Positions 9,669 through 32,761 of a stretch of DNA of 64,000 nucleotides are shown here, piece after piece. Origin of the DNA: a virus (lineage: Duplodnaviria > Caudoviricetes); the IMG/VR virus record IMGVR_UViG_3300042358_000005, positions 54,935-118,934 of that record. One strand, given 5' to 3'. Position 1 is the first letter of the stretch, and every line of letters begins with the position of its first letter. The notes under the pieces are model-generated. The model ran no database searches. It saw only the letters and a program-made list of their open reading frames with translations, and was not told where the DNA came from. Made by a program: the position numbers and the translations under genes.

Positions 9669-12600
9669 ATGAGTGTAATTTGTGCTGCTAATCCTTGCCC
9701 AATATTATTAAGTGCATCCTGTGTATTCTACGAAGGACCTAACTTAATATGTACTGGTATAAATACTAACGAAACCCTTGAATCTGCATTAAAGAAAATT
9801 AATGATAGACTGTGTTCAGGTGCTGGTGCTGATGGAACTAGTGGTACTTCTGGTACCAGTGGAACGTCAGGTACCTCAGGCACTAGTGGAACATCCGCAA
9901 CTTCAGGCACTTCTGGTACCACTGGTACTAGTGGTAGTTCTGGTACTAGTGGTAGTTCTGGAACCTCAGGAACTACTGGAACCAGTGGTACATCTGCTAC
10001 ATCTGGAACTGCTGGAACTTCAGGAGTGCAAGGTGATAGATATAGAACAGTCTCTACAGATTGTTTTACATTAGGTAACTCAGGAACACTTATTGTTGAT
10101 ATAGGATTGTCATACACTCCTGGTCAATCAATTGTTATTGCATACAATGCATTTAATTATCAAGAATCTGTTGTTTTAACATACAATCCTTTTACAGGAG
10201 ATTTAACTTTCACTGCCCCTACATTAGTAGTTGGTGCTGGAAACTATTGTATATGGGATATAAACCTAGATGGAGCAACAGGAGGAGATGGATCTTCTGG
10301 TACTAGTGGAACAAGTGCTACAGCTGGTACAAGCGGTACAACAGGAACTAGTGGTACAACAGGAACTAGTGGTTCTAGTGGAACTTCTGGAAGCTCAGGT
10401 ACATCGGGTACTAGTGGCACATCTGGTAGTTCTGGTACTACTGGAACTTCAGGAACAACAGGAACAAGTGGCTCTGCAGGATCAAGTGGGTCAAGTGGAT
10501 TAAATGGATCTTCTGGAGCTGCTATAGCTAACTGGTTTGCAAGTTATTCTGATAATGGGAATCAACCTATAATAGCTGCAAATACACCTACACCAGTTAC
10601 ATACAATACAACAGAAATAGCAAATGGTATTATTCTAGATGTTAGTCAACAGATTAGATATCCACATGCTAACATATATGAATTTGGATATTCTCTACAA
10701 GTAGAAAAAACTGGTGGCCCAAGTACAGATATAGAGATATGGATTAGAAAGAATGGTAATAACATTGTTAGAACAGATTCTTATTTAAGTATTACAGCTG
10801 ATGGTGTAATACAACTACCATATGTATCTTTTATATTAGAACTATTAGCTAATGATTATTTAGAAATTATATTTTCTTCTACAAGTCAATATGTTCAATT
10901 AACAGCTAAGGCTGCTAAAACTTCTCCATACGCTGCACCAGCAGCACCTTCTGTTATTGTTAATACAAAACAAATAGGTGTAGGTGTAGGTAGTACATCA
11001 GGAACCTCTGGTACTAGTGCCACATCAGGTACTACAGGAACATCAGGTACCTCTGCAACATCAGGTACGTCTGCTACAAGTGGAACTGCTGGAACTAGTG
11101 GAACCTCTGCAACAAGTGGTACTTCAGGTACATCAGGAACTAATGGTTCTGCAGGAACTTCTGGTACTTCTGGAACGTCAGGTACTAGTGGTAGCTCAGG
11201 AACATCAGGAGTAGATGGTACATCAGGTACAAGTGGAATAGATGGATCTAATGGTACGTCAGGTACATCTGGTACAAGCGGTAGTTCTGGATCTTCATCA
11301 ACTAGTGGTACTAGTGGAACAAGTGGAACTACAGGTACATCAGGAAGTTCTGGAAGCTCAGGAAGTTCTGGAACAAGTGGAACTAGCGGTACTAATGGAT
11401 CAGCTGGAACCTCTGGTACATCTGCTACTAGTGGGACTTCTGGTACATCGGGTACCAGTGGGACTTCTGGAACATCAGCCACAAGTGGAACTAGTGGTAC
11501 TAGTGCAACTAGTGGGTCTTCAGGAAGCTCTGGATCCTCTGCTACATCTGGTACATCTGGATATTCTGGAGATAAATATGCTACATCATCTACTACATGT
11601 TACACTATACAAGCACCTCCTGGTACAGGTACTATTACTGTTGATACAGGGCTTGCTTATACATTAGGACAAAGTATAATTATAACTTATTCAGGTGATG
11701 CTTTACAACACAATGAAGCTATCGTTACAGGATATGATCCATTAACTGGTATATTAAACTTTCAAGTGACTGGTCAAACTGGTTCAGGATTATATTGCTC
11801 ATGGTTTGTTAATTTAGATGGTGCAACAGGTGGTGATGGATCAAATGGTACATCAGGTTCTAGTGGTTCTTCAGCTACAAGTGGCACATCTGGAACAACA
11901 GGAACCTCAGGTACTACAGGTACATCAGGATCTAGTGGAACAACTGGTACATCTGGAACAACTGGTACGTCTGGTACGTCTGGTACTAGTGGTACTACAG
12001 GTAGTTCTGGATCATCAGGTATTGATGGTACATCAGGAACTACAGGTACATCTGGTACATCTGCTACTAATGGTACAGGTGGAACTAGTGGAACAAGTGG
12101 AAGCTCTGGTTCTTCTTCTACATCTGGTACATCAGGATCTTCTTCTACGTCTGGTTCTTCAGGTTCTAGTGGAACAAATGGAACAGGTGGAACATCAGGA
12201 TCTAGTGGATCTTCTGGTAGTAGCGCAACTTCAGGTACATCAGGTACATCAGCAATTAATGGAACAGATGGAACTTCTGGAACATCAGGGTCTAGTGGTA
12301 CAGCTGGTACATCTGGAAGTACAGGAACAAGCGGAACTTCAGGAAGTAGTGGTTCTAGTGCAACATCAGGAACATCAGGTACCACAGGTACGTCTGGTTC
12401 AAGTGGAATTAATGGTTCTAATGGAACCTCTGGAACCTCTGGAACCTCTGGTGCAAGTGGTTTAGGATATACAAATCCTGTTGCTGGTCCAACATCTGGA
12501 ACTTGGGTAACAGATTGTTCTTTAGTAGGAACAAATATTTCTTTTTATATATCTGGATCAGAATTAGGTGCATACACTGTAGGTAATTTTGTAAATCTAA

Positions 12601-15600
12601 TTGATACTACATCAGGTAGTACATTCTATTATTATGGTAGAATAACTTTAATACAATTTGCTGGAGGATTTGGATGGGCAATATATGTTGATGTATTAGA
12701 TTGTGGTGGGGTACCAGTTGGATCTCCATCAGGAAATTGGCAAATGCTACTTACAGGAACTGAAGGTTCTTCAGGATCTAGTGGTACATCTGGATCTAGT
12801 GGTACATCTGGAACTAGTGGTATTAATGGTACTAATGGAAGTTCAGGAACTAGTGGTACAACTGGAACATCAGGGTCATCAGGTATCAATATAGGTTCTA
12901 GTGCGGTTATTATATTAGGTGCTGGTGTATGTTCTTCTGTAAGAGATGGAGTTGGTAATACTTCTACTGGTGCGTTTAGTGCTTCTTTAGGAGGTCAAAA
13001 TAATAATGCAACTAATAGTTGTGCGACAATAGCTGGTGGATGTACAAATAATGCAACTGGTCAAGTATCAACAATTGGTGGTGGTCAAAATAACACTGCT
13101 TCTAATTATCAATCAACAGTTGGAGGTGGTAAATCTAACATTGCTTCTGGAGAAAAATCAACAGTTAGTGGTGGTCAATCTAACACTGCTAATGGTAATT
13201 TTGCAACAGTAAGTGGAGGTTTAAGTAATGTAAGTTCTTATGTAGGTACTGTTAGTGGAGGTGTTAACAACAATTCTAGTGCTTATTCTTCAACAATTGG
13301 GGGTGGTAAACAAAACACTGCTTCTGGAGATACATCAATAATAGCTGGTGGTGGTTGTAATACTGCTTCTGGTGGTCGTTCAACAATTGGTGGTGGTTAT
13401 CGAAATGTCGCTTGTAATATTTATTCAACAGTTGCTGGTGGTAATAGTAACTTTGCTTCTGGTAGTCGTTCATTTATTGGTGGTGGTTTTTCAAATACTG
13501 CTTCTAATAGTTATTCAACAATTACTGGTGGTAATGGTAATATTGCTTCTGGTATTCGTGCAACAATTGGTGGAGGACAAGAAAATTCTGCTTCTAATTC
13601 TTGTTCAACAGTCAGTGGTGGTCTTTTTAACATTGCTTCTGGTTTTAATTCATTTGTAGGTGGTGGTAAAGGAAATGTTGCTTCTAGTGATTGTTCAACA
13701 GTTAGTGGTGGTTATAAAAACTGTGCAACTCAGAATTATTCAACAATTGGAGGTGGTAGATATAATTTTATTTCAACTCGTTTGTCAACAATTGGTGGTG
13801 GATGTTCTAATAGATTAGCTGGTAATCATTGTTTTGGTACTATCGGTGGTGGATATTGTAATTTTGTAAAAGGACAATATGGTAGTTATAATAGTAAAGC
13901 ATCAACTATTAGTGGAGGAAGAAATAATTATACCTGTGGTTCATATATTAGCATTAGTGGTGGATTACGAAATTGTGCAACTGGTGCTTGTTCAACTATT
14001 GGTGGTGGTAAATGTAATGTTACAAGTTACGCTGGTTCAACAATAAGTGGTGGTTCTTATAATATTGCTTCTAATAGTTATTCAACAGTTGGAGGAGGAT
14101 ATTGTAACACTGCATCTGGTAATGATTCAATAGTAGGAGGTGGTAATAGTAATACTGCTTCTGCTTGTAGTTCAACAATTGGTGGTGGTCGTAGCAATAC
14201 TGCTACTAATTATTTTGCCACAATTGGTGGTGGTCAACAAAACATTGCTTCTGGTCTTTATTCAGCAGTTGGTGGAGGTCAAGCTAATACTGCTTCTGGT
14301 TCTCGTTCAACAATTGGTGGTGGTGTTGCTAACACTGCTTCTGGTTATCGTTCAACAATAGGGGGTGGTTATAGTAATACTGCTTCTGCTTATCATTCAA
14401 CAATTGGTGGGGGTAAAACTAATACTGCTTCTGGCATCCGTTCAACAGTTAGTGGTGGATATAGTAATATTGCTTATAATTTTAGTTCAACAGTTGGAGG
14501 TGGTCAATATAATAATGCTTCTGGTATAGGTTCAACAGTAAGTGGTGGCGGAGTGAATTATTATAATTTTAGTTATTATAGTGCTGGTAATAGTGCTTTT
14601 GGAAATTCTTCAACAATTGGCGGTGGTCTTTTTAATATTGCTTCTGGATGTAGTTCTTTTATTGGTGGTGGTTGTAGCAACACTGCTTCTGCTAATAGTT
14701 CAACAATAAGTGGTGGTCAAAGCAACACTTCTTCTAGTAATTTTTCAACAGTTGGTGGTGGTGTAATTAACACTGCTTCTAATCCTTATTCAACAGTTAG
14801 TGGTGGTTTACAAAACACTGCTTCTGGTAATTCTTCAACAGTAGGTGGTGGTAGAAATAATATTGCATCTGGTATTCAATCAGCAATTGGTGGGGGTTGT
14901 CAAAATACTGCTTCTGCAACTTATTCAACTGTTGGTGGTGGTAAATATAATACTAACAATAGTCAGTATTCTACAATTTCTGGTGGTTGTGGTAATATAA
15001 TTCCAAATACACAAAATAATAGAAACACTATTGGTGGTGGAGTTTGTAATGTAATGATAGCTAATACAAGTGGTGCTACAATTAGTGGTGGTAGAGCTAA
15101 TACTATAAGTAGTGGTAGTGGTAGTTGTTATATGACTATTAGTGGTGGTTGTTGTAATACTATTACTTCTGGTACTGCATCAACTATTGGAGGTGGGAAA
15201 TGTAATACTACTTCGGCTTTTAGTGCAACAGTTAGTGGTGGATATAGTAATACTGCTTCTGCTGGTCGTGCAACAGTTGGAGGTGGTAGTAATAATGTTG
15301 CTTCTGTTTATTGGGCAACAGTTGGAGGTGGTAATGCAAACAATGCTTGTGGTCAATCTTCAACAATAGGCGGTGGAACTTCTAATATTGCTTCTAGTAA
15401 TTATTCAATAGTTGGTGGTGGTTATTCTAATGATGCTACTAATTCTTTTGCAATAGTTGGTGGTGGTAATGCAAACACTGCTTCTGGTAGTCGTTCTACA
15501 ATAAGTGGTGGTCAATCAAATACTGCTTCTTCTTCTTATTCAACAATAGGAGGTGGTTTAAATAATATTGGTTCTGGTTGTTTCTCAACAATTAGTGGAG

Positions 15601-16568
15601 GTCAAGGCAATACTGCTTCTGGTACTCTTTCAAATACTGGAGGTGGTTTTTGCAACATTGCTTCTGGTAGTCTTTCAACAATTGGTGGTGGTCAATGTAA
15701 CAGAAATTGTTCTGACTATTCAATAATTGGCGGTGGTGTAAGTAATTGTACAGATTACGGATGTTTGAATACCATTAGTGGTGGTATGACAAATAGAATG
15801 ATTCATAATACCAATAGTATTATTGGGGGAGGTCAGAATAACTCAATTTGTGGAAATATTGCTAATTCTTCTTATACTCGTGGTAATTCTATTTTGGGAG
15901 GTTATAATAACGCTATAAACAATATAAGTTACGCTACGGAATCTCAAAATAATACAATAACTGGCGGAATATCCAATAGTATATTTGCATATAATTCTGC
16001 ATATACCTGTTCTAATTTTATTGGTGGTGGTAAGAGTAATGCAATTTGTTCTTCAAGTAGTGATAAAGCCAGTTATAATTCTATTATAGGTGGTAGAAGT
16101 AATAATATAACTGGTTTTTGTAACTCACATATTATTGGTAGTTACCTTTCTGTAACTGCCAATGACACAACATTTGTTCAAGCATTATCAAAAACAAGTG
16201 GTACGTTTAGAATTAAGCACCCAGAACCTATAAAAAACAAAACGCATTACTTACAACACTCGTTTGTTGAATCGCCTACTGCTGGAGATAATATTTATAG
16301 ATATGTTGTTAAAGTAGTAGATGGTGTTGCTGAAATTGAATTGCCAGAGTATTTCAAATTCCTAAATGAAAACACTCAAATTTGGGTAACGCCCAAAGAA
16401 GGTTTTGGAATTGCTTATGGAAAAGTAGATGAAAATTTAAAAAAAGTAACTATATTTGCTAACGAGGATTTAGAATATAACGTTCTTATCATAGGAACAA
16501 GAAAAGATAAAGATGCTATTGAAAATTGGAATGGTATTGAAATATTACAAAATAAAATAAATAAATAA
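9669..16568 (+). CDS. Giant repetitive fibre/spike protein: Gly-X-Y (GTS/GSS) tracts, C1q/BclA-like domain, 15-aa beta-helix repeats, C-terminal fibre domain
   Basis: 2299 aa with long (GTS)n runs, dozens of GGGxxNxASGxxSTI repeats and a C-terminal KTSGTFRIKHP...LQHSFVESP domain; lies in the virion gene block. Confidence 0.8.
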   Translation: MSVICAANPCPILLSASCVFYEGPNLICTGINTNETLESALKKINDRLCSGAGADGTSGTSGTSGTSGTSGTSGTSATSGTSGTTGTSGSSGTSGSSGTSGTTGTSGTSATSGTAGTSGVQGDRYRTVSTDCFTLGNSGTLIVDIGLSYTPGQSIVIAYNAFNYQESVVLTYNPFTGDLTFTAPTLVVGAGNYCIWDINLDGATGGDGSSGTSGTSATAGTSGTTGTSGTTGTSGSSGTSGSSGTSGTSGTSGSSGTTGTSGTTGTSGSAGSSGSSGLNGSSGAAIANWFASYSDNGNQPIIAANTPTPVTYNTTEIANGIILDVSQQIRYPHANIYEFGYSLQVEKTGGPSTDIEIWIRKNGNNIVRTDSYLSITADGVIQLPYVSFILELLANDYLEIIFSSTSQYVQLTAKAAKTSPYAAPAAPSVIVNTKQIGVGVGSTSGTSGTSATSGTTGTSGTSATSGTSATSGTAGTSGTSATSGTSGTSGTNGSAGTSGTSGTSGTSGSSGTSGVDGTSGTSGIDGSNGTSGTSGTSGSSGSSSTSGTSGTSGTTGTSGSSGSSGSSGTSGTSGTNGSAGTSGTSATSGTSGTSGTSGTSGTSATSGTSGTSATSGSSGSSGSSATSGTSGYSGDKYATSSTTCYTIQAPPGTGTITVDTGLAYTLGQSIIITYSGDALQHNEAIVTGYDPLTGILNFQVTGQTGSGLYCSWFVNLDGATGGDGSNGTSGSSGSSATSGTSGTTGTSGTTGTSGSSGTTGTSGTTGTSGTSGTSGTTGSSGSSGIDGTSGTTGTSGTSATNGTGGTSGTSGSSGSSSTSGTSGSSSTSGSSGSSGTNGTGGTSGSSGSSGSSATSGTSGTSAINGTDGTSGTSGSSGTAGTSGSTGTSGTSGSSGSSATSGTSGTTGTSGSSGINGSNGTSGTSGTSGASGLGYTNPVAGPTSGTWVTDCSLVGTNISFYISGSELGAYTVGNFVNLIDTTSGSTFYYYGRITLIQFAGGFGWAIYVDVLDCGGVPVGSPSGNWQMLLTGTEGSSGSSGTSGSSGTSGTSGINGTNGSSGTSGTTGTSGSSGINIGSSAVIILGAGVCSSVRDGVGNTSTGAFSASLGGQNNNATNSCATIAGGCTNNATGQVSTIGGGQNNTASNYQSTVGGGKSNIASGEKSTVSGGQSNTANGNFATVSGGLSNVSSYVGTVSGGVNNNSSAYSSTIGGGKQNTASGDTSIIAGGGCNTASGGRSTIGGGYRNVACNIYSTVAGGNSNFASGSRSFIGGGFSNTASNSYSTITGGNGNIASGIRATIGGGQENSASNSCSTVSGGLFNIASGFNSFVGGGKGNVASSDCSTVSGGYKNCATQNYSTIGGGRYNFISTRLSTIGGGCSNRLAGNHCFGTIGGGYCNFVKGQYGSYNSKASTISGGRNNYTCGSYISISGGLRNCATGACSTIGGGKCNVTSYAGSTISGGSYNIASNSYSTVGGGYCNTASGNDSIVGGGNSNTASACSSTIGGGRSNTATNYFATIGGGQQNIASGLYSAVGGGQANTASGSRSTIGGGVANTASGYRSTIGGGYSNTASAYHSTIGGGKTNTASGIRSTVSGGYSNIAYNFSSTVGGGQYNNASGIGSTVSGGGVNYYNFSYYSAGNSAFGNSSTIGGGLFNIASGCSSFIGGGCSNTASANSSTISGGQSNTSSSNFSTVGGGVINTASNPYSTVSGGLQNTASGNSSTVGGGRNNIASGIQSAIGGGCQNTASATYSTVGGGKYNTNNSQYSTISGGCGNIIPNTQNNRNTIGGGVCNVMIANTSGATISGGRANTISSGSGSCYMTISGGCCNTITSGTASTIGGGKCNTTSAFSATVSGGYSNTASAGRATVGGGSNNVASVYWATVGGGNANNACGQSSTIGGGTSNIASSNYSIVGGGYSNDATNSFAIVGGGNANTASGSRSTISGGQSNTASSSYSTIGGGLNNIGSGCFSTISGGQGNTASGTLSNTGGGFCNIASGSLSTIGGGQCNRNCSDYSIIGGGVSNCTDYGCLNTISGGMTNRMIHNTNSIIGGGQNNSICGNIANSSYTRGNSILGGYNNAINNISYATESQNNTITGGISNSIFAYNSAYTCSNFIGGGKSNAICSSSSDKASYNSIIGGRSNNITGFCNSHIIGSYLSVTANDTTFVQALSKTSGTFRIKHPEPIKNKTHYLQHSFVESPTAGDNIYRYVVKVVDGVAEIELPEYFKFLNENTQIWVTPKEGFGIAYGKVDENLKKVTIFANEDLEYNVLIIGTRKDKDAIENWNGIEILQNKINK
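9831..12890 (+). repeat. Gly-Thr-Ser / Gly-Ser-Ser triplet repeat tracts, interrupted by globular domains
   Basis: Degenerate 9-nt coding repeats (ggtacttct/ggaacatca etc.) with Gly at every third codon. Confidence 0.9.
12960..16140 (+). repeat. ~45-nt (15-aa) coding repeat, consensus GGGxxNxASGxxSTI
   Basis: tcaacaattggtggtggt...aatactgcttctggt units recur throughout the C-terminal half of the fibre. Confidence 0.9.
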
Positions 16569-16573
16569 ATAAA

Positions 16574-16900
16574 ATGGAAAATTTCACAATTCACATCTTC
16601 GGTTACGGAGAAACACAAATCAATTCAAAAGATTTGTCAGTAAAAGTATCAACTGATACATTAACAACAGTAACGCCTTTAGTGGCTGGAATATTTGCTA
16701 AAAAACCAGCAGATAATCCAACTGTAATTACAGACTTTCACGCTATTAACCTATTTGGTTATAACGATGTTCGTTGGACTGCAAAAGATAGCTTTAACGT
16801 AAAAGATGATGCTGACTTAAAACCACTTATCGATGCTTTAATTGCTGAATTGCAAAAAGCAAAAGACACAACTACTACCACAACTACAATATTGGTATAG
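16574..16900 (+). CDS. Small hypothetical protein with C-terminal poly-Thr tail
   Basis: 108 aa ending KDTTTTTTTILV; follows the fibre gene. Confidence 0.75.
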   Translation: MENFTIHIFGYGETQINSKDLSVKVSTDTLTTVTPLVAGIFAKKPADNPTVITDFHAINLFGYNDVRWTAKDSFNVKDDADLKPLIDALIAELQKAKDTTTTTTTILV

Positions 16901-16984: not shown

Positions 16985-17806
16985 ATGAAGAAAAGAATTT
17001 TATTTAACTCCTCTCTTCCTAGAGCAGGATCAACTCTTCTGCAAAATATTATTGCAGATAACCCAGACTTTCATTGTACACCTACATCAGGATTCTTAGA
17101 TCTTATATTAGGTGCAAAGCAAAGTTATAATAACTCATCAGAAGTAAAAGCACAAGATGCTGAACTAATGAAGAATGCTTTTGTAGGGTTTTGTCATAAT
17201 GCTATGGATGGATATTTTAATGCTCTAACAGATAAACCTATTGTCTTAGATAAGAATAGAGGTTGGGGAATACATATTAATCTAGCTAGTGAGTTCATGG
17301 TGTCTCCTAAAGTGGTATGTATGATTAGAGATGTAAGAGCTGTATATTCTTCTATGGAGAAAAACTTTCGTAAGAATCCTACACAAGAGAATCATGTTCA
17401 AAATCCTAATCAATTAGTAGGTACTACTCTTCAAAAGAGAATTAACATATGGGCTGATGGACCACCAGTAGGTATATCTATGGATAGACTAAAAGATGTA
17501 TTTGATCAGGGAATAGATAAGAAGATATTATTTATTCGTTATGAAGATTTAATGGACTTTCCTGAACAAGAGATGAGACGCTTCTATGAGTATATGGAAC
17601 TTCCATATTATGAAGGACACAACTTTGAAACTGTTACACAGCATACACATGAAAATGATGCTATACATGGAATATATGGTGATCATAAACTAAGAACAAA
17701 GTTTGAAAGAAAGCCTGATGATTTTGAAGAAATCTTAGGATTTGAAATATGTCAATCAATTAAAAACACTTATCCTTGGTTCTTTACCAAATTTGGATAC
17801 GTATAA
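16985..17806 (+). CDS. PAPS-dependent sulfotransferase (Sulfotransfer_3-like)
   Basis: 5'-PSB motif SSLPRAGSTLLQN, 3'-PB motif IRDVRAVYSS, and RYEDL. Confidence 0.9.
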   Translation: MKKRILFNSSLPRAGSTLLQNIIADNPDFHCTPTSGFLDLILGAKQSYNNSSEVKAQDAELMKNAFVGFCHNAMDGYFNALTDKPIVLDKNRGWGIHINLASEFMVSPKVVCMIRDVRAVYSSMEKNFRKNPTQENHVQNPNQLVGTTLQKRINIWADGPPVGISMDRLKDVFDQGIDKKILFIRYEDLMDFPEQEMRRFYEYMELPYYEGHNFETVTQHTHENDAIHGIYGDHKLRTKFERKPDDFEEILGFEICQSIKNTYPWFFTKFGYV

Positions 17807-17816: not shown

Positions 17817-18686
17817 ATGAATATAATATTTGATATATCAGGAGGCTTAGGAAAGAATGTTCTTTCTACAGCTGTATTAAAAGCTATTAAGACTAAACAT
17901 CCTAAAGCAAACGTAATTGTTCTTACATCTTATCCAGATGTGTTTATTGGTAATCCAAATGTAAACAAGGTGATAGTTCATGGAACCACATTAGGTCTTT
18001 ATAAAGATTACATAATGGGTAAGGACACAAAGATTTTTATTACAGATCCTTATACATGCTCTGATTACTTAACAGAATCAAAACATCTAATTGAAATATG
18101 GTGTAAACTATGTGAGGTGCCATATAATAATGAATTACCTGAGCTTTTTATATCTAAAACAGAAATAGAATACTTTGCTCCATTCTATAAATTAGATAAA
18201 CCTATTCTTGCTATACAACCTAATGGTGGTCCTCAAGATCAACCATTAAAATATAGTTGGACAAGAGACATTCCTTCTCCAGTAATTAATGATGTAATAC
18301 AACATTACAAAAAGAAATATACAATTGTACACATTAAACGTGATGATCAACCAATCTACGATGATACAGTAGGAGCTCTTGATTCATTTAGAAGTATAGC
18401 TGTTCTATTATCATTATCAGAAAGAAGACTTCTTATTGATTCATCAGCTATGCATATTGCTATAGCTCTAGGACTTCCAAGTGTTGTATGTTGGATAGGA
18501 ACAAATTCAAAGGTGTTTGGATATGAAATGAATACTAATATAGATGCTAATGCTCCAGACAAAGAATTAAACTTAGATCATCCATATTTACAAAGACTTC
18601 CATTGTTTGAAGATATCTCTAGATGTCCATATACAGAACTAGGAAGTATATTCAATAGCGAAGACATAATTAAAGCATTGAAATAA
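17817..18686 (+). CDS. GT-B glycosyltransferase, GT9 (ADP-heptose transferase-like)
   Basis: GGLGKNV N-terminal loop and IDSSAMHIAIALG motif. Start reassigned to ATG 17817 to avoid a long overlap. Confidence 0.8.
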   Translation: MNIIFDISGGLGKNVLSTAVLKAIKTKHPKANVIVLTSYPDVFIGNPNVNKVIVHGTTLGLYKDYIMGKDTKIFITDPYTCSDYLTESKHLIEIWCKLCEVPYNNELPELFISKTEIEYFAPFYKLDKPILAIQPNGGPQDQPLKYSWTRDIPSPVINDVIQHYKKKYTIVHIKRDDQPIYDDTVGALDSFRSIAVLLSLSERRLLIDSSAMHIAIALGLPSVVCWIGTNSKVFGYEMNTNIDANAPDKELNLDHPYLQRLPLFEDISRCPYTELGSIFNSEDIIKALK

Positions 18687-19126
18687 TGGCAGTATATTGG
18701 TTTACAGGACAGCCTTCACATGGTAAAACAGTTTTGGCTAAATTGCTAAAAGAAGAACTACAGAAATACGATAGAGTTTTTCATATAGATGGTGATGATC
18801 TTAGAGCTCTTACATTAAACAAAGACTTCTCTGAACAAGGAAGAATAGATAATGTCAAAGGTGCACAAAAAATAGCACATTATTTACATAATAAAGATTA
18901 TACAGTGGTAGTTTCACTCATTGCTCCATATAGATGGCAGAGAGAAGAACTAAAAACTATGCTTGGTGCAGATCTTGTAGAACTATATGTTCATACAACA
19001 GAACCAAGAGAAAGAGATCATTTTAGTGTAAAAGATTATGAAGCTCCCTTAGAGAACTTTATAGATGTAGACACTACAGATGATACACCAGAAGAATCAT
19101 TTGCTAAAATTTTAAAACTAATATAA
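18686..19126 (+). CDS. cysC: Adenylylsulfate (APS) kinase
   Basis: VYWFTGQPSHGKT P-loop, IDGDDLR, FSEQGRIDNV, LIAPY and YEAP motifs. Confidence 0.9.
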   Translation: MAVYWFTGQPSHGKTVLAKLLKEELQKYDRVFHIDGDDLRALTLNKDFSEQGRIDNVKGAQKIAHYLHNKDYTVVVSLIAPYRWQREELKTMLGADLVELYVHTTEPRERDHFSVKDYEAPLENFIDVDTTDDTPEESFAKILKLI

Positions 19127-23906: not shown

Positions 23907-24298
23907 TATTAGAACTTAAAAGAAAGATATTCACAGATGATTCCACAATAGGAGAAATATCTATTGATGGTGTATTTATATGTTATACATTAGAGGATAA
24001 AGTGAGAGAGACTAAGATAAAGAACATAACAGCTATCCCTTATGGAAAATATGAATTAGCAGTTACATTCTCTAATCGTTTTAAACAGTACATGCCTCTA
24101 TTACTTAATGTACCAGGATTTGAAGGTGTACGTATACACAGTGGTAATAAATCTACTGAAACAGAAGGATGTATTCTTGTAGGTGGTACTAGATCATTAA
24201 ACTTTATTGGCAAGTCTAGAGTGACATATAAAGCTTTATTTGATAAGATAAAGAGTGCAAAAAAAACAGAGAAGGTCTTTTTAAACATTACGCAATAA
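23903..24298 (+). CDS. Putative endolysin, DUF5675 (L,D-transpeptidase-like fold)
   Basis: STIGE...CYTLED...TAIPYGKY...IHSGN...TEGCILVG. Confidence 0.8.
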   Translation: MILELKRKIFTDDSTIGEISIDGVFICYTLEDKVRETKIKNITAIPYGKYELAVTFSNRFKQYMPLLLNVPGFEGVRIHSGNKSTETEGCILVGGTRSLNFIGKSRVTYKALFDKIKSAKKTEKVFLNITQ

Positions 24299-24612
24299 TG
24301 ATACAATATTTAAAAGATCAGTACTTGGCGGTGATCATCACCGTTATCTGGCTATTCTTTACACTACATACTCAACAAAAGACTGCTCTTCTATTAGAAC
24401 AAACTAAGAAATTAGAAGCTAAAATATTAGTTCTTGAAGAAAAAGATCATGAGTCTAGTATAATTATTGATAGCTTATCTAGAGTGGATACACTCATAGT
24501 TAATAGAATCAAAATCATCAAACAAAAAGAATATGTACAAATTAGGATTATTGATAGTTTGCCTGTTAGTGGGCTTCAAAAGTACTTCACAGATCGTTAC
24601 TCAGAAAAATGA
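24298..24612 (+). CDS. Putative inner-membrane spanin-like protein
   Basis: N-terminal TM segment plus coiled coil, immediately after the endolysin. Confidence 0.55.
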   Translation: MIQYLKDQYLAVIITVIWLFFTLHTQQKTALLLEQTKKLEAKILVLEEKDHESSIIIDSLSRVDTLIVNRIKIIKQKEYVQIRIIDSLPVSGLQKYFTDRYSEK

Positions 24613-25009
24613 TTCTATCGTTACCCTTAGTGAAACTGTTTCTAGGAAGGTTGTTTCTGATCTTGTACGTTATGATTTTGCTAAGAATATTATCAAAGAG
24701 CAAGAGATAAGAATAAAGAACTACCAGAACAAAGAGATTGAGTTTAAGAACAAACTAGATATAAAAGATTCCATCATATTCTATCAGAAGAGTATTATTG
24801 ATATTCATAAAGAGATTATCAAGAGTAAAAAACCTTTAGAGATACATGGATATGTAGGTGTACAATCAATTCAATTCAAATTGGTAGAACCTATATTATA
24901 TACAAACTTAATGTTTGAGTTTCCTAAGTTCAGTATAGGAGCTCAATACTACGTACAACCTAACAATCCTAGTGGATATGGGATTGTTCTAGAATATAAC
25001 TTATTTTAA
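24533..25009 (+). CDS. Putative outer-membrane spanin-like protein
   Basis: Signal peptide, coiled coil and C-terminal amphipathic beta strands ending in F; overlaps the previous gene. Confidence 0.5.
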   Translation: MYKLGLLIVCLLVGFKSTSQIVTQKNDSIVTLSETVSRKVVSDLVRYDFAKNIIKEQEIRIKNYQNKEIEFKNKLDIKDSIIFYQKSIIDIHKEIIKSKKPLEIHGYVGVQSIQFKLVEPILYTNLMFEFPKFSIGAQYYVQPNNPSGYGIVLEYNLF

Positions 25010-25404: not shown

Positions 25405-25572
25405 ATGGCAATACCATCAAGAGGAATAGGCTGGAGTACTACAGATAACCTATTATGGCAGATATCTAAGCAATTAGAACGTCTTATTAGTGTTACAGGT
25501 GCTGGAAACACGTACACTACAACTACTACTACTACTGTAGCACCTACTACCACTACCACTACAACAGTGTAA
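25405..25572 (+). CDS. 55-aa protein with mucin-like poly-Thr tail; absent from ORF track
   Basis: MAIPSRGIGWSTTDNLLWQISKQLERLISVTGAGNTYTTTTTTTVAPTTTTTTTV, preceded by a TATTTTTG element at 25371. Confidence 0.8.
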   Translation: MAIPSRGIGWSTTDNLLWQISKQLERLISVTGAGNTYTTTTTTTVAPTTTTTTTV

Positions 25573-25598: not shown

Positions 25599-26615
25599 AT
25601 GAAAGATTTAAAATTTATCCAGGCTTGTCCTAGTGATATTTATTACACATGGCAAGTGCACATGTGGTTAGAGAGCTTAAGAGAGATAGGTCATTCTGAC
25701 AAAGCTATATCAGTAATCTTCACTCCTAAAGGGAGAGAGAATAAAGACAAGTGGAAACAGATAGAAGATCTATATCCAGAAGCAGAGTTTCATTACTATG
25801 CTGATGAGGATAATTTAAATCGATTGTTAGGAATTTATATTCCTGTACTTAGACCATATGTTCTTTGGAAACATTTTAAAGCACATCCAGAACTAAGTGA
25901 AAAAGCTATCTTCTATTGTGACTCTGATATTCTTTTCATGAAGGATTTCAATCTAGATAAGTTCTTAGAAGATGATGTTAACTACTTATCTGATACAAAC
26001 AGCTATATCAATGCTAAATATTTTGATAGCAAGGTGCACCAAGTGTTACCAGAGAAGCTAGAAGAATATAAGAATAGGGATATCCTTGCAGAGATTGCAA
26101 GTGTGGTAGGAATAAGTAGAGAAGTGTGCGAAGCTAATAATGATCATTCAGGAGGAGCTCAATATCTATTAAAAAATGTAGATGGTGACTTCTGGAGTAA
26201 GGTGATGAATGATTGTATTCTTATAAGAAGTTATTTACAAACTGTGAATAGAGAATTCTTTAAAGATGAGAACTCAGGGTTTCAAAGTTGGTGTGCAGAT
26301 ATGTGGGCTGTCTTATGGAACATCTGGTTAAGAGATCAAGAAACAAAAGTGGTGCCTGAATTAGCATTTGCTTGGGCTACAGATCCTCTTATTAAATTAG
26401 ATACACATACAATCTTTCATAATGCAGGAATAGTTTCTGAGACAGGAAATGGATACCCAGCTTTCTACAAAGGAAAGTATCACATGGGAACTGATCCAAC
26501 AAAAGATCCTAACTTAGATATGATTCTTAATGATGAGAATTCAAAAAAATATTGCACATGGTTCTATGCAAATAAATTAAATGAACTAAAACAAAAACAT
26601 AACCTAAACTATTAA
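25599..26615 (+). CDS. GT-A glycosyltransferase resembling peptidyl-Ser galactosyltransferase / Hyp arabinosyltransferase (GT96/GT95-like)
   Basis: YYTWQ...YIPVLRPY...IFYCDSDILF (DxD)...GGAQY...SWCADMWA...FHNAG motif order. Confidence 0.6.
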   Translation: MKDLKFIQACPSDIYYTWQVHMWLESLREIGHSDKAISVIFTPKGRENKDKWKQIEDLYPEAEFHYYADEDNLNRLLGIYIPVLRPYVLWKHFKAHPELSEKAIFYCDSDILFMKDFNLDKFLEDDVNYLSDTNSYINAKYFDSKVHQVLPEKLEEYKNRDILAEIASVVGISREVCEANNDHSGGAQYLLKNVDGDFWSKVMNDCILIRSYLQTVNREFFKDENSGFQSWCADMWAVLWNIWLRDQETKVVPELAFAWATDPLIKLDTHTIFHNAGIVSETGNGYPAFYKGKYHMGTDPTKDPNLDMILNDENSKKYCTWFYANKLNELKQKHNLNY

Positions 26616-26631: not shown

Positions 26632-26838
26632 ATGGGAAGCATTAATTCAAGACCTTTAAAGGCTTTTGTTAGATTCGATGGATCTGGCAGAATAGTTGCA
26701 GGAAGTTTGATTCTAAGAAAGAACAAACCTAAAGTTGGTAAATGGAAAGAGATTCCAGCATATGAGTGCTGTAATCCTACAACCACTTCAACCACCACTG
26801 CTGTATTAACAACAACAACAACCACCTCACCTAGATAA
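26632..26838 (+). CDS. Small protein with poly-Thr tail (paralog 1)
   Basis: LKAFVRFDGSGR...KPKVGKWKEI..ECCN followed by PTTTSTTTAVLTTTTTTSPR. Confidence 0.8.
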   Translation: MGSINSRPLKAFVRFDGSGRIVAGSLILRKNKPKVGKWKEIPAYECCNPTTTSTTTAVLTTTTTTSPR

Positions 26839-26840: not shown

Positions 26841-27062
26841 ATGGCAAGAAGTAATAACAATAATAAGCTTAAAGCTTTTGTACGTTTTGATGGTTCAGGA
26901 CGTGTAGTATCAAGTAGTTTAATTGTACAAGCATTTAAACCGAAGGTTGGTAATTGGAAAGAAATAGATGCTAAGGAATGTTGTAATTATGTTCCAACAA
27001 CAACAACTACCACTACAGTAGCACCAACAACTACAACCACCACTACAGTTACTCCAGGGTAA
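26841..27062 (+). CDS. Small protein with poly-Thr tail (paralog 2)
   Basis: Same head domain as paralog 1, followed by PTTTTTTTVAPTTTTTTTVTPG. Confidence 0.8.
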   Translation: MARSNNNNKLKAFVRFDGSGRVVSSSLIVQAFKPKVGNWKEIDAKECCNYVPTTTTTTTVAPTTTTTTTVTPG

Positions 27063-27781: not shown

Positions 27782-29014
27782 ATGCCAACATTTATAAAAC
27801 CAGGATTCTGGAAAGAAACATGCAATCCTTGTAATGGTTACAAAGGATGGTTAAACCTTGATCAATTCTCTGGTCAATCAGGAACAAATGGAACAAGTGG
27901 TACTAGCGGTGTATCAGGTGAACAGGGTGTTCAAGGAATTCAAGGGATACAGGGAATACAGGGAATACAAGGAGTTACAGGTTCTAGTGGTACTAATGGT
28001 ACATCAGGACTAACTGGAGACAGATATCAAACTACATCTACAACAACTTTTGAATTAGGAGTGAGTACAACTCTTACTGTTGAAACAGGATTATCTTATT
28101 CAGTAGCACAAGATGTAATTATATCATTTAATGTTAATAATCATCAAGTGTGTTCTGTAGTTAGTTATGATCCTATAGTAGGGACATTGGTTATTGGACC
28201 TCCTATATCAGTAACTGGATCAGGTACATATAGTGTATGGGGAGTAAATCTAAATGGTGCAGCTGGAGGAGATGGTACAAACGGAACCTCTGGTACAAGT
28301 GGTCTTTCAGGATCTAATGGAACCAGTGGAACTAGTGGTATACAAGGAATACAAGGTGTACAAGGAATTCAAGGAATTCAAGGAGTTAATGGTACCAATG
28401 GTACTTCTGGCACTAGTGGATTAACTGGAACTAACGGAACATCTGGTATCAATGGTAGCAATGGTACAAGTGGATCTTCAGGAGTGAGTAATGCTACAGC
28501 ATCTTACGGTTTATTTGCTCAAACAGCTGATAGCACACCTGTAACTGCCACTGCAGTAGAAACAACAGTAATAGGATCAGGAGTTGGTACATTATCTGTT
28601 CCTGCAAATGCATTCTCTATTGGAGATTCTTTTCTTTGTTCTTTAGATGGTTTAATTTCTTGTACAAGTGCATCAACTGTACGCATTCGAGTAAAAACAG
28701 TAGGAGGAACACTTCTTGCAGATACTGGAATAATTGATTTGGCTGCTGCAACTAATAAAGCTTGGATAATGAACTTATATTTTACAGTAAGAACATTAGG
28801 AATAGCTACTGTTGCATCAATTTCATCTGGAGGATTGTTCTCTTATATTAGAAATGGGGGAACTCAATTTGAAGGATATAATTTAAGTACAGTTAATAGC
28901 ACTACATTTGATACCACTATTAACAATACATTAGTAATCACAGCACAGTGGGATACAGCTGATGTAGACAATTCAATATTGTCACGAAACTTCACACTAA
29001 CAAAAGTCTATTAA
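27782..29014 (+). CDS. Collagen-like fibre/decoration protein (GIQ and GTS triplets)
   Basis: Gly-X-Y tracts plus the GDRY...NLxGAxGGDG domain shared with the 2299-aa fibre. Confidence 0.75.
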   Translation: MPTFIKPGFWKETCNPCNGYKGWLNLDQFSGQSGTNGTSGTSGVSGEQGVQGIQGIQGIQGIQGVTGSSGTNGTSGLTGDRYQTTSTTTFELGVSTTLTVETGLSYSVAQDVIISFNVNNHQVCSVVSYDPIVGTLVIGPPISVTGSGTYSVWGVNLNGAAGGDGTNGTSGTSGLSGSNGTSGTSGIQGIQGVQGIQGIQGVNGTNGTSGTSGLTGTNGTSGINGSNGTSGSSGVSNATASYGLFAQTADSTPVTATAVETTVIGSGVGTLSVPANAFSIGDSFLCSLDGLISCTSASTVRIRVKTVGGTLLADTGIIDLAAATNKAWIMNLYFTVRTLGIATVASISSGGLFSYIRNGGTQFEGYNLSTVNSTTFDTTINNTLVITAQWDTADVDNSILSRNFTLTKVY

Positions 29015-29368: not shown

Positions 29369-29572
29369 ATGAGAATATATGAACCAAAGAATAGAATAGA
29401 TGTTACAACACCCAAGGGAGATGGGATAATTCTTTTTGTGACTGATTATGGTCATGAGACAGACACCATCTATACAATTATTATAAATGAAACAGGAGAA
29501 ATGTGGCAATACACCCATTCTCAATTAATAGTTAAACCCAATATAACATTTAAACGCTATGGCAACAATTAA
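29369..29572 (+). CDS. Hypothetical protein
   Basis: 67-aa ORF in the operon. Confidence 0.55.
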   Translation: MRIYEPKNRIDVTTPKGDGIILFVTDYGHETDTIYTIIINETGEMWQYTHSQLIVKPNITFKRYGNN

Positions 29573-29981
29573 AAAAGCACAAGGTGGTGTAACAGCTACA
29601 AAAGATAGTACAGCTTATTTTAGTAATAAAGCTGATAAGTTATCAGCTTCTATGAAAAAGAAAAATTTAAAGGGAGATTTTAGAGGAGGATCATCAGATT
29701 TAAAAGGTGCTCTTCAAGCTTTAAAAGATGAATATAGACAAGGTAATAAAGGAAAATCTGGTTATGATAAAAATGGCTATCGTTTGAAAAATGGTGGATC
29801 TTTATCTGGACTTAAAGCCTCCAACAAAAGAGTTGGTCCTGTAGATCCTAATGGAGCATTCACAAAGGTTCAAGAAAGAACATTAGCTGGTGCTAAAGGT
29901 AAAGCTAAGCTTGTAAAAGATAAACAACTTGGTGCTACAAAGATGACAGCTAAAGCTGGAAAGAAAATCTCTAAGAAATAA
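29559..29981 (+). CDS. Lys/Gly-rich basic protein (putative DNA-condensing core protein)
   Basis: MATIKKAQGG, KNGG and AKAGKK motifs; very basic. Confidence 0.65.
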   Translation: MATIKKAQGGVTATKDSTAYFSNKADKLSASMKKKNLKGDFRGGSSDLKGALQALKDEYRQGNKGKSGYDKNGYRLKNGGSLSGLKASNKRVGPVDPNGAFTKVQERTLAGAKGKAKLVKDKQLGATKMTAKAGKKISKK

Positions 29982-30145
29982 TGGCTACCACTGATAAAAA
30001 GTGGATGCAAAAAGTTTCAGCTTCTATCAAAAAACGTGGTACTGCTGGTAAATGTACACCAATCACTAAACCTGGTTGTACAGGAAAAGCTAAAGCTCTT
30101 GCTAAAACTTTTAAAAAGATTGCTAAATCTAATAAGAAGAAATAA
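29981..30145 (+). CDS. 54-aa basic protein; absent from ORF track
   Basis: MATTDKKWMQKVSASIKKRGTAGKCTPITKPGCTGKAKALAKTFKKIAKSNKKK; TAATG-coupled on both sides. Confidence 0.75.
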   Translation: MATTDKKWMQKVSASIKKRGTAGKCTPITKPGCTGKAKALAKTFKKIAKSNKKK

Positions 30146-30420
30146 TGTCTAAGCTAAATCCACAGAACGCTACAGCTTATGTAGGCCCTGGTGTTTTACG
30201 CAAAGGAGGAAAAATCACTCCTGTTCCAAATGGTCCTCTTATTAAGAAGAAAGGTCCATTTAAAGGAAGCACATTAAAATCTGGTGGTATGTTAAAACGT
30301 AAAGATGGATCTACATCTAGACGTGGTTTATGGGATAATATAAGAGCTAATAAAGGATCTGGAAAGAAACCTACAGCAGCTATGTTAAAACAAGAAAAGA
30401 AAATTAAAGCTAAGAAATAA
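30145..30420 (+). CDS. Lys-rich basic protein
   Basis: RKGG and KSGG motifs, GLWDNIRA. Confidence 0.65.
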   Translation: MSKLNPQNATAYVGPGVLRKGGKITPVPNGPLIKKKGPFKGSTLKSGGMLKRKDGSTSRRGLWDNIRANKGSGKKPTAAMLKQEKKIKAKK

Positions 30421-30698
30421 TGGCAACAGCAGCATGGACTAGAAAAGAAGGAAAGAATCCTTCTGGTGGTTTAAACAAAAAGGGAGTGGCTTCTTATAGA
30501 GCTGCTAATCCTGGTAGTAAACTAAAGACAGCTGTAACTACTAAACCTTCTAAACTTAAACCTGGAAGTAAAGCTGCAGGAAGACGTAAGTCATTTTGTA
30601 GTAGAATGTCAGGTATGAAAAAGAAGCTTACCAGTGCTAAGACAGCAAAAGACCCTCAATCAAGAATCAATAAGTCACTTCGTAAGTGGAATTGCTAA
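30420..30698 (+). CDS. Basic phage protein (DUF6321-like)
   Basis: WTRKEGKNPSGGLN.KG...RRKSFCSRM.G...SLRKWNC. Confidence 0.7.
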   Translation: MATAAWTRKEGKNPSGGLNKKGVASYRAANPGSKLKTAVTTKPSKLKPGSKAAGRRKSFCSRMSGMKKKLTSAKTAKDPQSRINKSLRKWNC

Positions 30699-30716
30699 CA
30701 ATCAAAATAATATATA

Positions 30717-31178
30717 ATGGCAACAATAAAAAAAGCTCAAGCAGGAATCACTGCTAAAAAACCTGTAGTTAAAGTGGTGGAAAAGAAAACCACTGTAACA
30801 GCAAAAAAACCTAAGACTGTTTCTGAGAGAATTGGAGATTTGACATTAAGAGATGTTAAAAATTCTGCTGAAGATGCTCTTAATCTTTCCACTCTTGGTG
30901 GATATGGAGTTGCAAAGAAAAAAGTTAAAGAATTAACTGGTATGAAATCTGGTGGTAAAATGAAAAAAGCTAAGTCTGGTGGTTCATTCCCTGATCTTAA
31001 TAAAGATGGAAAGATTACAAAAGCTGATGTTCTTAAAGGACGTGGTGTTATAGCTAAGAAAGGTGTTAAAATGAAAAAAGCTCAGACTGGTGATAAATTA
31101 TATCCTACATCTGGTATAGGTAAAAATGTACCAGCTAAGAGTGGTAAGTTAATGAAAAAGTGTAAAGGTGGCTGCTAG
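30717..31178 (+). CDS. Lys-rich basic protein with EF-hand/dockerin-like loop
   Basis: MATIKKAQAG start shared with the 29559 ORF, repeated AKxGG, and PDLNKDGKITKAD. Confidence 0.65.
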   Translation: MATIKKAQAGITAKKPVVKVVEKKTTVTAKKPKTVSERIGDLTLRDVKNSAEDALNLSTLGGYGVAKKKVKELTGMKSGGKMKKAKSGGSFPDLNKDGKITKADVLKGRGVIAKKGVKMKKAQTGDKLYPTSGIGKNVPAKSGKLMKKCKGGC

Positions 31179-31185
31179 TAAATCT

Positions 31186-31335: not shown

Positions 31336-31363
31336 AGAAAGCCCCTTAATTGGGGCTTTTTTT
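31336..31363. terminator. Bidirectional terminator at the convergence of the two genome arms
   Basis: AAAGCCCC-TTAATT-GGGGCTTT with flanking A and T runs; the coding strand switches here. Confidence 0.9.
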
Positions 31364-32012
31364 ATCTAACTGTGTATTGATTTGAGTAAACATTACCTTC
31401 TAATAACTTGTATCTTGTACCAAACTTATGTAATAGATATGGAAGACTGAGTTGATCTTGAACAGACCATATGCAATTGTGATAGAACCACTCTTTCATT
31501 AAATTGTATTGTCTGTTAGCTATAACATTCTTAGAATATATGAATGTTCCACATTCAAAAAGAACATTATCTATCCAGTGTACATTTTTAGAATAGTGCT
31601 CTACTTGCTCTTTCATTCTTTCTCCATCATACCTATCAATAAGATATTGATTATCTGTAGCAATTAAACTAATGACATGGTCTAGCTCTTGTTTAACAGA
31701 ACTTCTTCCTGAATGTTTAAAGAAACATGCATCTGTGTCAATACATACATCTACCATTCTCTCTATAGCTGATTCATCTGATATTGAAAAACCAGCATCC
31801 ATCCATATGTAATAGTCATAACTTGGATGATCTTCCCAAACTATCATTTTAGGTATTTTACCACGTAATCTGGGAAACATAGCTTTTTGTCTTGGAGATT
31901 CTATTTGATCATCTATTCTATTAAATACTATTTCATACTTATCAGATTTTTGATCTACCCATCTAGAATATAATCCACTTCCAAATGAAGCTGTTGTTAC
32001 TAATACTCTCAT
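31362..32012 (-). CDS. Glycosyltransferase, DUF616/TOD1-MUCI70-like
   Basis: YIWMDA...FKHSGR...SVQDQLSLPYLL. Confidence 0.7.
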   Translation of the reverse strand: MRVLVTTASFGSGLYSRWVDQKSDKYEIVFNRIDDQIESPRQKAMFPRLRGKIPKMIVWEDHPSYDYYIWMDAGFSISDESAIERMVDVCIDTDACFFKHSGRSSVKQELDHVISLIATDNQYLIDRYDGERMKEQVEHYSKNVHWIDNVLFECGTFIYSKNVIANRQYNLMKEWFYHNCIWSVQDQLSLPYLLHKFGTRYKLLEGNVYSNQYTVR

Positions 32013-32761
32013 TGTTTATTTATAAAATCTTTTAACATTTGCGCATAGTCTTTGTTCCAATGAGGATTCAAATGAACATCTCCTGTAGGGATAAGATTTT
32101 TTTGTCTTAAGCTTTCTATATATTCACTATGTCTTTGTATTATGTTAGGCTTATCTGCAGTGTCTGTACCTTGTCCAGATTGATGATAACCACGTCCACC
32201 CCACATATAGAACCAAGAACATTCTTCATTAGGAGGAGCAGCTAAAACCATTCCTTGTCTTCCTAGATTCTGTAGAGATATAGCTAATGTCATATCTCCT
32301 CCAGCATTCTGTATTGGACTTTTACCTATTTTTTCCCAAGCTTTCTTGCTATATACAATACCTGAATTACCAAGGCCCATTATTTTGGTTATATTAGGTT
32401 CATTATAGAACACACCTCTTTCCCAATGTAATATATTAGCATCAGGTCTCCAAAACTTAGCTATGTTAGAGAGGTGATTGCTTAGTGCTACATCATCATC
32501 ATCCCATACAGCAATAAGATCTCCAGAACAATGCTCTATAGCATAGTTTTCTTTATCCCCAATTGTAGGGAATGTTTCATCCATATTATAAATTTTTATT
32601 TCTGGATGATCATATACTAACTTTTGTAGAGGGTAGTCATTAACTATAATAAGTTCTTTCTTACCTGGATACTCTTGTAGGAGGAAACTTTGTATAGCTT
32701 CCTCCAGAGTATCTACTCTTCCATAAGTGATGCATTTGCAACTAATGAAAGGATATTCCAT
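32009..32761 (-). CDS. GT2-family glycosyltransferase
   Basis: ISCKCITYGR...SFLLQEY...ELIIVND...WDDDD; start reassigned to MEYPF. Confidence 0.85.
   Translation of the reverse strand: MEYPFISCKCITYGRVDTLEEAIQSFLLQEYPGKKELIIVNDYPLQKLVYDHPEIKIYNMDETFPTIGDKENYAIEHCSGDLIAVWDDDDVALSNHLSNIAKFWRPDANILHWERGVFYNEPNITKIMGLGNSGIVYSKKAWEKIGKSPIQNAGGDMTLAISLQNLGRQGMVLAAPPNEECSWFYMWGGRGYHQSGQGTDTADKPNIIQRHSEYIESLRQKNLIPTGDVHLNPHWNKDYAQMLKDFINKQ

Follow-up and report, generated by a model that had tools for sequence, protein, structure and literature searches.

Three separately distributed enzyme modules in a lake phage related to crAss-like phages and their predicted role in modifying virion proteins

Why would a phage encode seven glycosyltransferase (GT)-type domains, a methyltransferase, a sulfotransferase and an adenosine 5'-phosphosulfate (APS) kinase amid six Ser/Thr-rich virion-type open reading frames (ORFs)? 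The question is raised by positions 9669-32761 of the window analysed here, the right-hand 64 kb (64,000 nucleotides) of a single 118,934-bp lake-phage contig, in which all these elements, first listed in an initial annotation of the DNA, are indeed present. That annotation had joined them into one system clothing the whole particle in a sulfated and methylated glycan shield. We find instead three modules with separate distributions: module 1 is a 1137-amino-acid (aa) multi-domain enzyme, module 2 a 338-aa enzyme together with two further glycosyltransferases, and module 3 an accessory sulfation cassette. As acceptors we consider fibres, small tail-anchored proteins and the linkers of tail proteins rather than the particle at large. 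We propose that the enzymes of the region probably modify the phage's own virion proteins, a target also named in the initial annotation and now favoured by the co-variation of enzymes with their presumed substrates.

This co-variation is seen with the 338-aa enzyme of module 2 (25599-26615, plus strand), a candidate O-glycosyltransferase of Thr tails. Its AlphaFold model (predicted local distance difference test score, pLDDT, 96.8) has a GT-A fold, for which Foldseek returned glycogenin (GT8) as the best match and also the catalytic domain of UDP-glucose:glycoprotein glucosyltransferase (UGGT), with E = 3e-7 and template modelling (TM) scores of 0.4-0.6; the DxD motif (D108, D110) is invariant. 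The protein falls in no Pfam, NCBIfam or named PHROG family. Kinship with GT95/GT96 (HPAT/SERGT), which the initial annotation had suggested, was rejected for want of profile support, the fold being closest to GT8 glycogenin and the sole lead being an atlas neighbour cluster with PF23452 in 10% of its members. With 2,676 relatives at 90% clustering and 769 clusters at 50% identity, its family is a large one; it is found in phages of Bacteroidota, Firmicutes and Actinobacteria, and includes longer relatives fused to GT2, GT6, GT7C, GT29 or methyltransferase domains.

ORFs with poly-Thr tracts are present in 39/39 loci with the GT-A enzyme as against 13/41 without it; among distant loci lacking the enzyme such an ORF occurs in 1/22, and ~400 kb of phage DNA without the enzyme has hardly any Thr tracts. 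Homologues were found in 77 cultured phage records, from which seven unrelated groups were inspected, and in 7/7 of these the gene directly upstream of the homologue ends in a Thr-rich tail. This upstream gene encodes the major tail protein in Enterococcus phiFL2A, where the nearby major head protein also ends in seven Thr; Enterococcus nattely has a small poly-Thr ORF upstream and a major tail protein further along that also ends in Thr runs; and in Arcanobacterium TPWB06 the gene for a Thr-tailed major tail protein and a small poly-Thr ORF overlap at the end of the former. Staphylococcus DH5 and Lactobacillus Semele each have two Thr-tract ORFs, Chryseobacterium MA9V-3 has two Thr/Ser-tract ORFs, and Lactobacillus SAC12B has an immunoglobulin (Ig)-domain protein ending in (PTTV[AK])n. 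We also observed, in three Gram-positive phages, a small ORF consisting almost wholly of Thr runs just upstream of the enzyme gene (L090, 3660-3926; L089, 3719-3883; L088, 3540-3926); the one in L090 shares, in a different frame, the end of the gene annotated as major tail protein and could be a frameshift extension of that protein. The phiFL2A homologue (L084, 4001-4847), which is unannotated and lies between the genes for the major tail protein and the tail chaperone, matches in two pieces; it may be disrupted there and is intact in phiFL1A.

In the lake phage itself, runs of at least seven Thr in ORFs of at least 100 aa number 13, against ~0.0004 expected and a shuffle mean of 0.01. These runs are encoded by mixed ACA, ACT and ACC codons; hence, selection acts on the encoded protein rather than on a repeat in the DNA. 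The genome's Thr runs in sizeable ORFs are confined to the plus strand of the virion block, the remaining matches being short frames that are mostly antisense to the fibre gene. The mini-proteins encoded beside the 338-aa enzyme, all on the plus strand, end in T7-[AV]AP-T7 tails: a 55-aa protein with a conserved N-terminal module and the tail T7-VAP-T7 (25405-25572), and two tandem paralogues with poly-Thr tails and a conserved head ending in ECCN (26632-26838 and 26841-27062). Their heads are conserved, with tails that are poly-Thr in some phages and globular or collagen-like in others, as in relatives of the 55-aa protein where such a C-terminus replaces the Thr tail; this is the pattern of what would be anchored fibre modules with exchangeable distal parts. 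Further upstream, a 1735-aa poly-Thr protein matches the crAss muzzle protein family, and six of the seven upstream poly-Thr structural proteins match no Pfam or PHROG family. In the muzzle homologue (L002, 12057-17264; genome 32057-37264) a Thr/Ser tract stands directly before a C-terminal Fib_succ_major domain, which suggests a binding module appended on a putatively glycosylated stalk.

It might be argued that such Ser/Thr-rich tracts are only flexible or structural linkers and that their proximity to the enzymes reflects shared late expression. Poly-Thr and collagen-like segments do serve as linkers in many proteins, and the tract of the muzzle protein sits exactly between two domains. We nevertheless hold this explanation to be very improbable: the same association is found again in seven cultured phage groups that are unrelated and differ in virion architecture, many of the tracts are C-terminal tails with nothing to link, and the near absence of tracts from the ~400 kb of DNA without the enzyme runs counter to it.

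Two further enzymes are assigned to module 2, namely a GT2 glycosyltransferase (32009-32761, minus strand; PF00535, 43.3 bits, E = 4.8e-11) and a 216-aa TOD1/MUCI70 (DUF616)-like glycosyltransferase (31362-32012, minus strand; PF04765, 22.5 bits against a cut-off of 21.4). The two are rarer (31 loci), and their genes are paired in 16/31. In another phage type, genes for poly-Thr proteins, the GT-A enzyme, a GT2-methyltransferase protein and the DUF616-like enzyme follow one another, and this run of genes ties the pair to the poly-Thr pathway. The GT2 homologue of that phage type (L097, 8588-9994) bears a fused C-terminal methyltransferase, mirroring the methyltransferase fusion in the 1137-aa enzyme.

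The 1137-aa enzyme that constitutes module 1 (19774-23187, minus strand) comprises four domains. Residues 1-125 (22813-23187) form an S-adenosylmethionine-dependent methyltransferase domain (Pfam Methyltransf_23/11/25), which is missing in shorter relatives of ~990, 700 and 380 aa. The following segment, residues 131-470 (21778-22797), showed no significant relation in hhalign comparisons to the 338-aa enzyme, the GT2, the GT4 or the sulfotransferase, and its assignment to the GT-A fold comes from a fold search: its AlphaFold model (pLDDT 87.1) retrieved UGGT and GT6 ABO transferases with Foldseek (E = 9e-8, ~1e-7; TM 0.4-0.6), and its DxD (D135, D137) is invariant. Residues ~480-790 (20818-21750) are a GT4 domain of the GT-B fold (Pfam Glycos_transf_1, E = 2.6e-10), matched in 19/22 relatives scanned. 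The C-terminal residues 827-1137 (19777-20709) match TIGR04414 with 259 bits against an NCBIfam equivalog cut-off of 200 (E = 6.5e-77) and TibC (PDB 4RB4) with E = 7.6e-50. This equivalog-level match predicts membership in the protein O-heptosyltransferase family of TibC and Aah (bacterial autotransporter heptosyltransferases, BAHTs) and the transfer of heptose to Ser.

BAHTs are cytoplasmic protein O-glycosyltransferases acting on Ser of repetitive beta-helices, those of the adhesins TibA and AIDA-I in the case of TibC and Aah (PDB 4RAP/4RB4), and the residues essential in TibC are Cys339, 342, 358 and 370 of an iron finger, Asp110, Thr226, Lys230, Arg286 and Trp305 (PMC4358343). In the phage domain the four iron-finger Cys align to C1089, C1092, C1108 and C1120, which are invariant in 22 relatives, and equivalents of the catalytic Asp110 and of Thr226, Lys230 and Trp305 are kept, so that three of the four sugar-nucleotide contacts are retained. 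The position of Pro300 in TibC is Ser, as in Aah; the alignment begins at TibC residue 59-61, and one relative matches PF21129 (TibC_1st). The domain is found in at least 124 viral contigs, both stand-alone (~380 aa) and in fusions of ~700, 990 and 1150 aa. Unlike TibC and Aah, it is phage-encoded and in the lake phage is fused to GT4, GT-A and methyltransferase domains, from which an oligosaccharide would be expected in place of single heptoses.

Like TibC and Aah, which are paired with long repetitive Ser-rich surface proteins, the phage enzyme has such a protein encoded next to it. Within this lineage the 1137-aa gene always adjoins a Ser/Thr/Gly-rich fibre gene, and in more distant lineages the BAHT-domain gene lies beside a giant repetitive Ser/Thr/Gly-rich ORF, often of period 15, in 10/17 inspected loci. 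The candidate acceptor in the lake phage is a 2299-aa tail fibre (9669-16568, plus strand; Pfam Collagen, 195 bits; PHROG tail-fibre families) containing 33% Ser+Thr, in which collagen-like blocks with at least 144 Gly-X-Y triplets (mostly GTS, GSS and GTT) are followed by ~58 repeats of 15 residues and then by a globular C-terminus. The repeat consensus is (G/S)GGxxN(T/I)AS(G)xxST(V/I), with two nearly invariant Ser per repeat and frequent Tyr at positions 4, 11 and 12; the presumed acceptor thus departs from the 19-residue-repeat autotransporters modified by TibC and Aah. ADP-heptose genes also accompany the enzyme in relatives: in distant phage lineages, stand-alone TibC-like genes have HldC-like and PfkB genes immediately after them, and some relatives have a full ADP-heptose gene set inside the sulfation cassette (isomerase-like cupin, PfkB kinase, HAD phosphatase, HldC-like transferase and epimerase). 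Cassettes extended in this way lie at 11413-14008 of L048 and 14433-15233 of L038, and one relative also has an FkbM-type methyltransferase.

The same inventory could instead serve to remodel host envelope glycans, i.e. lipopolysaccharide, capsule or exopolysaccharide, for example to block superinfection or to keep progeny off debris. Loci for envelope polysaccharides typically contain GT2, GT4 and GT9-type domains, sulfotransferases and genes for ADP-heptose synthesis, and sulfated capsules exist in marine bacteria. Against this, all the modifying enzymes are soluble proteins without membrane segments, and no flippase, polymerase, ligase, Gtr-type or lipid-carrier glycan machinery was seen among the region's ORFs. 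Moreover, TIGR04414, the equivalog of a family defined by protein glycosylation, is matched far better (259 bits) than lipopolysaccharide heptosyltransferases (E = 2e-5), the 338-aa homologue of Gram-positive phages has the major tail protein gene on one side and the tail chaperone gene on the other, and two of the enzyme sets co-vary with features of phage structural proteins. Hence, we favour a virion target and regard the envelope, which the initial annotation had entertained as an alternative, as an improbable one.

The second enzyme set showing such co-variation is the sulfation cassette of module 3. It begins with a 273-aa, soluble sulfotransferase dependent on 3'-phosphoadenosine 5'-phosphosulfate (PAPS; 16985-17806, plus strand; PF13469, 58.5 bits against a cut-off of 27, E = 1.5e-15), in which the 5'-phosphosulfate-binding motif (PRAGST; P12, R13, G15, T17) and the 3'-phosphate-binding motif (RDVR..S; R115, D116, R118, S123) are invariant across 13 homologues. 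Sulfotransferases are also annotated in a few cyanophages. Next comes a 289-aa protein of GT9 fold (17817-18686, plus strand), related by hhalign to the phage TibC-like domain (95.8%, E = 7e-9), with PF01075 as its atlas lead; its profile finds no match among PDB sequences at E up to 1. It is followed by a 146-aa APS kinase (18686-19126, plus strand; PF01583, 65.8 bits against a cut-off of 21.1, E = 5.8e-18), which keeps the P-loop, DGDxxR, FSxxxRxxN and SxxxPY motifs when aligned to solved APS kinases; among its 23 PDB matches the first 22 are to APS kinases, whole or as domains. The kinase scores below the NCBIfam equivalog cut-off (TIGR00455; 65.4 against 138.7 bits) because it is short. 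The last two members are a 143-aa HxGH nucleotidyltransferase with the superfamily motifs GRWQPLHEGH and ISATKVR (19126-19557, plus strand) and a DUF2061 membrane protein of ~67 aa (19554-19757, plus strand; PF09834, E = 1.7e-15). The DUF2061 gene overlaps the end of the nucleotidyltransferase gene, encodes the region's only membrane protein, and accompanies the kinase and the transferase in most cassette loci.

Of the PAPS supply claimed in the initial annotation the APS kinase step is certain and nothing else is, the 143-aa transferase failing the ATP-sulfurylase profile (PF01747 gives no match, and two homologues reach 17-18 bits against a cut-off of 24.3). Nevertheless, the transferase is always kept or lost together with the APS kinase, and in natural proteins it is fused to a 57%-identical orthologue of that kinase, a fusion also found in Stenotrophomonas phage DLP_6. 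It may therefore be put forward as a tentative candidate for the sulfate-activating step, a role that stays hypothetical because the protein is nearest to nicotinamide mononucleotide (NMN) adenylyltransferases. We also considered it as a heptose-1-phosphate adenylyltransferase and rejected this as the leading option: relatives have an HldC-like gene besides it in the cassette, and the gene tracks the APS kinase and not the GT9-fold gene.

Across the 80 loci scored, the cassette genes come and go as a set. Their place is always between the fibre gene and the 1137-aa enzyme gene, and one sub-lineage has them inverted. A hidden Markov model (HMM) of the 15-residue repeat matches fibres in 10/18 cassette loci as against 0/62 others, and in most of the eight remaining cassette loci the fibre lies outside the fetched DNA; a regular-expression version of this test gives a Fisher p = 7e-9, which overstates the significance since the loci are related. 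As the repeat HMM matches only cassette loci, cassette and repeat domain appear to be exchanged as a unit, just as one would expect of enzymes and their acceptor, here among related loci. A lack of correlation between enzyme and substrate genes had been named in the initial annotation as refuting its proposal; the opposite is found, and twice, the GT-A enzyme tracking poly-Thr tails and the sulfation cassette tracking the 15-residue-repeat domain.

What the sulfotransferase would act on is a separate matter. It might directly sulfate side chains of the fibre (Tyr or Ser/Thr), with the GT9-fold protein as a non-catalytic acceptor-binding partner and a sulfated protein, not a glycan, as the product. 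The best solved relatives of its profile are the tyrosylprotein sulfotransferases (TPSTs) TPST1/2 at 1.5e-11, carbohydrate sulfotransferases matching weakly (~0.03), and frequent Tyr at repeat positions 4, 11 and 12 speaks for this reading too. Against it, the similarity to TPSTs covers only the PAPS-binding half (residues 5-123), and TPSTs prefer an acidic context around the acceptor, which the fibre does not offer. Direct modification would also accord with the lysine that invariantly replaces the catalytic Asp in the GT9-fold protein, and with the sulfation predicted for bacterial collagen-like and tail-collar proteins by Iyer et al. 2010 (PMC2938197). The cassette, however, always holds the GT-fold protein and in some relatives ADP-heptose genes too, which fits a sugar that is added and then sulfated; hence, we judge direct sulfation of side chains to be unlikely.

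From the family memberships, folds, synteny and co-variation described above, we infer the following acceptors, sugars and order of steps. Cytoplasmic enzymes would modify fibre and tail proteins of the phage before or during assembly. In module 1, the TibC-type domain would start O-glycosylation on Ser of the repetitive giant fibre, with ADP-heptose, to be taken from the host, as the donor; the GT-A and GT4 domains would extend the glycan, and the methyltransferase domain would then cap it. In module 2, the 338-aa enzyme would place the first O-linked sugar on poly-Thr tails and linkers, both of small fibre-like proteins and of tail proteins, the muzzle among them, and the GT2 and DUF616-like enzymes would probably extend this glycan. 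The accessory cassette of module 3, comprising the sulfotransferase, GT9-fold protein, APS kinase, HxGH nucleotidyltransferase and DUF2061 protein, would make PAPS and sulfate the fibre domain of 15-residue repeats, on a sugar or directly on protein. In its most far-reaching form, the proposal is of a phage that adds sulfate to its own fibre, which would be a first for any phage particle, with PAPS from the smallest known PAPS synthase, consisting of the APS kinase, an NMN-adenylyltransferase-related transferase of ~130-145 residues recruited as an ATP sulfurylase, and DUF2061 as a third component; taken as a whole we consider this doubtful. Mimicry of polysaccharides taken up by SusCD systems, also raised in the initial annotation, found no support, and the sequence itself points to no function, be it protection, adhesion or mimicry.

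Several observations weigh against virion modification as laid out here. Arg286, which reads the adenine in TibC, has no aligned equivalent in the phage domain, where it faces Thr with an Arg two residues later, and there are no ADP-heptose genes in this genome. The invariant lysine of the 289-aa protein is at the GT9 family's catalytic Asp position (GD motif). The profile of the 143-aa transferase finds only NMN adenylyltransferases of archaeal type in the PDB, and at least one cassette locus (L051) has a fibre without the 15-residue repeat. The GT2 and DUF616-like genes are on the opposite strand in a leftward operon and may on that account be expressed at another time. As the sampled loci are related to one another, their counts are not independent events. 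Finally, glycan and sulfate modification is a prediction from genes here, a point that also sets the lake phage apart from the mycobacteriophages considered next.

To our knowledge, glycosylated phage particles have been documented by measurement only for mycobacteriophages. Freeman and colleagues reportedly described, in Cell Host Microbe in 2023, virion glycosylation of mycobacteriophages Che8, Corndog and Myrna, with little evidence elsewhere. The likeness is that phage-encoded glycosyltransferases are present, the O-glycans of those phages being on C-terminal tails of virion subunits, and that 338-aa homologues lie beside capsid and tail-tube genes whose products have Thr-rich C-termini. 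The present case differs in its enzyme families, host phyla and long homopolymeric Thr tags, in fibres and small tail-anchored proteins as additional predicted targets, and in its extra methylation and sulfation genes. The chlorovirus PBCV-1 encodes A064R, a soluble multi-domain enzyme with several GT domains and a methyltransferase that acts on a structural protein in the cytoplasm. The 1137-aa protein is likewise a soluble, virus-encoded enzyme joining GT and methyltransferase domains, and the giant-virus case differs in its eukaryotic host, N-linked capsid glycans, unrelated domains and lack of sulfation. A closer parallel for module 3 is a computational one, namely bacterial operons in which genes for beta-hydroxylase, sulfotransferase and PAPS synthetase accompany those for collagen-like or tail-collar proteins, whose sulfation was predicted (Iyer et al. 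2010, PMC2938197). As there, a sulfotransferase is co-encoded with its own PAPS supply for collagen- or fibre-like proteins; those operons are bacterial and hydroxylase-reliant, whereas the phage locus has no dioxygenase, includes glycosyltransferases and has a minimal kinase and nucleotidyltransferase pair as its PAPS genes. Like PAPS synthases, this pair couples an APS kinase to an HxGH-superfamily nucleotidyltransferase, in some relatives by N-to-C fusion; unlike them, its transferase has only 128-145 residues, is nearest to NMN adenylyltransferases and scores below the Pfam ATP-sulfurylase threshold, its activity being a prediction. Our search of the phage literature found no description of BAHT-type enzymes, poly-Thr tags or particle sulfation, and what it found on virion glycosylation was only citations of the mycobacteriophage study (PMC12619734).

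The genome around these modules has a G+C content of ~32%, and PHROG families recognise its terminase, its portal and its major head protein. In terminase identity the phage stands at 40% to Leptolyngbya phage Lbo-JY46, at 31% to Cellulophaga phages phi4:1 and phi17:2, and at 25-30% to crAss-like phages, and we regard it as related to the last; no match was returned when the DNA of the region was searched against 50,697 phage records. The stretch at 9669-32761 closes a rightward late (virion) block and takes in two genes, the first ones, of a leftward block. Its remaining Ser/Thr-rich ORFs are one of 108 aa with a C-terminal run of seven Thr (16574-16900, plus strand), the homologues of which in L004 and L039 are without the run, and a second collagen-like fibre of 410 aa with 27% Ser+Thr (27782-29014, plus strand; Pfam Collagen, 71 bits; PHROG tail-fibre families). 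The small ORFs at 16574-16900, 24298-25009 and 29559-30420 match no Pfam or PHROG family, and neither do a 4328-aa and a 1578-aa ORF that precede the fibre gene (window 2-9185; genome 46395-64119). Four small co-oriented ORFs at 29559-31178, with 20-24% Lys and mostly 9-14% Gly, one of them with DUF6321, could code for packaged or DNA-binding proteins.

These findings indicate that aquatic phages commonly carry a type of protein O-heptosyltransferase first met with E. coli adhesins, and that virion glycosylation may extend beyond mycobacteriophages, given a 338-aa enzyme family that is large and spans three host phyla. Several of the phages concerned can be cultured, which opens the question to direct tests. 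If the proposal is correct, surface glycans and sulfate would affect the adsorption and stability of phages, their stickiness to mucus and particles, and their recognition by antibodies, and sequence or cryo-electron microscopy models alone would be insufficient to understand phage fibres.

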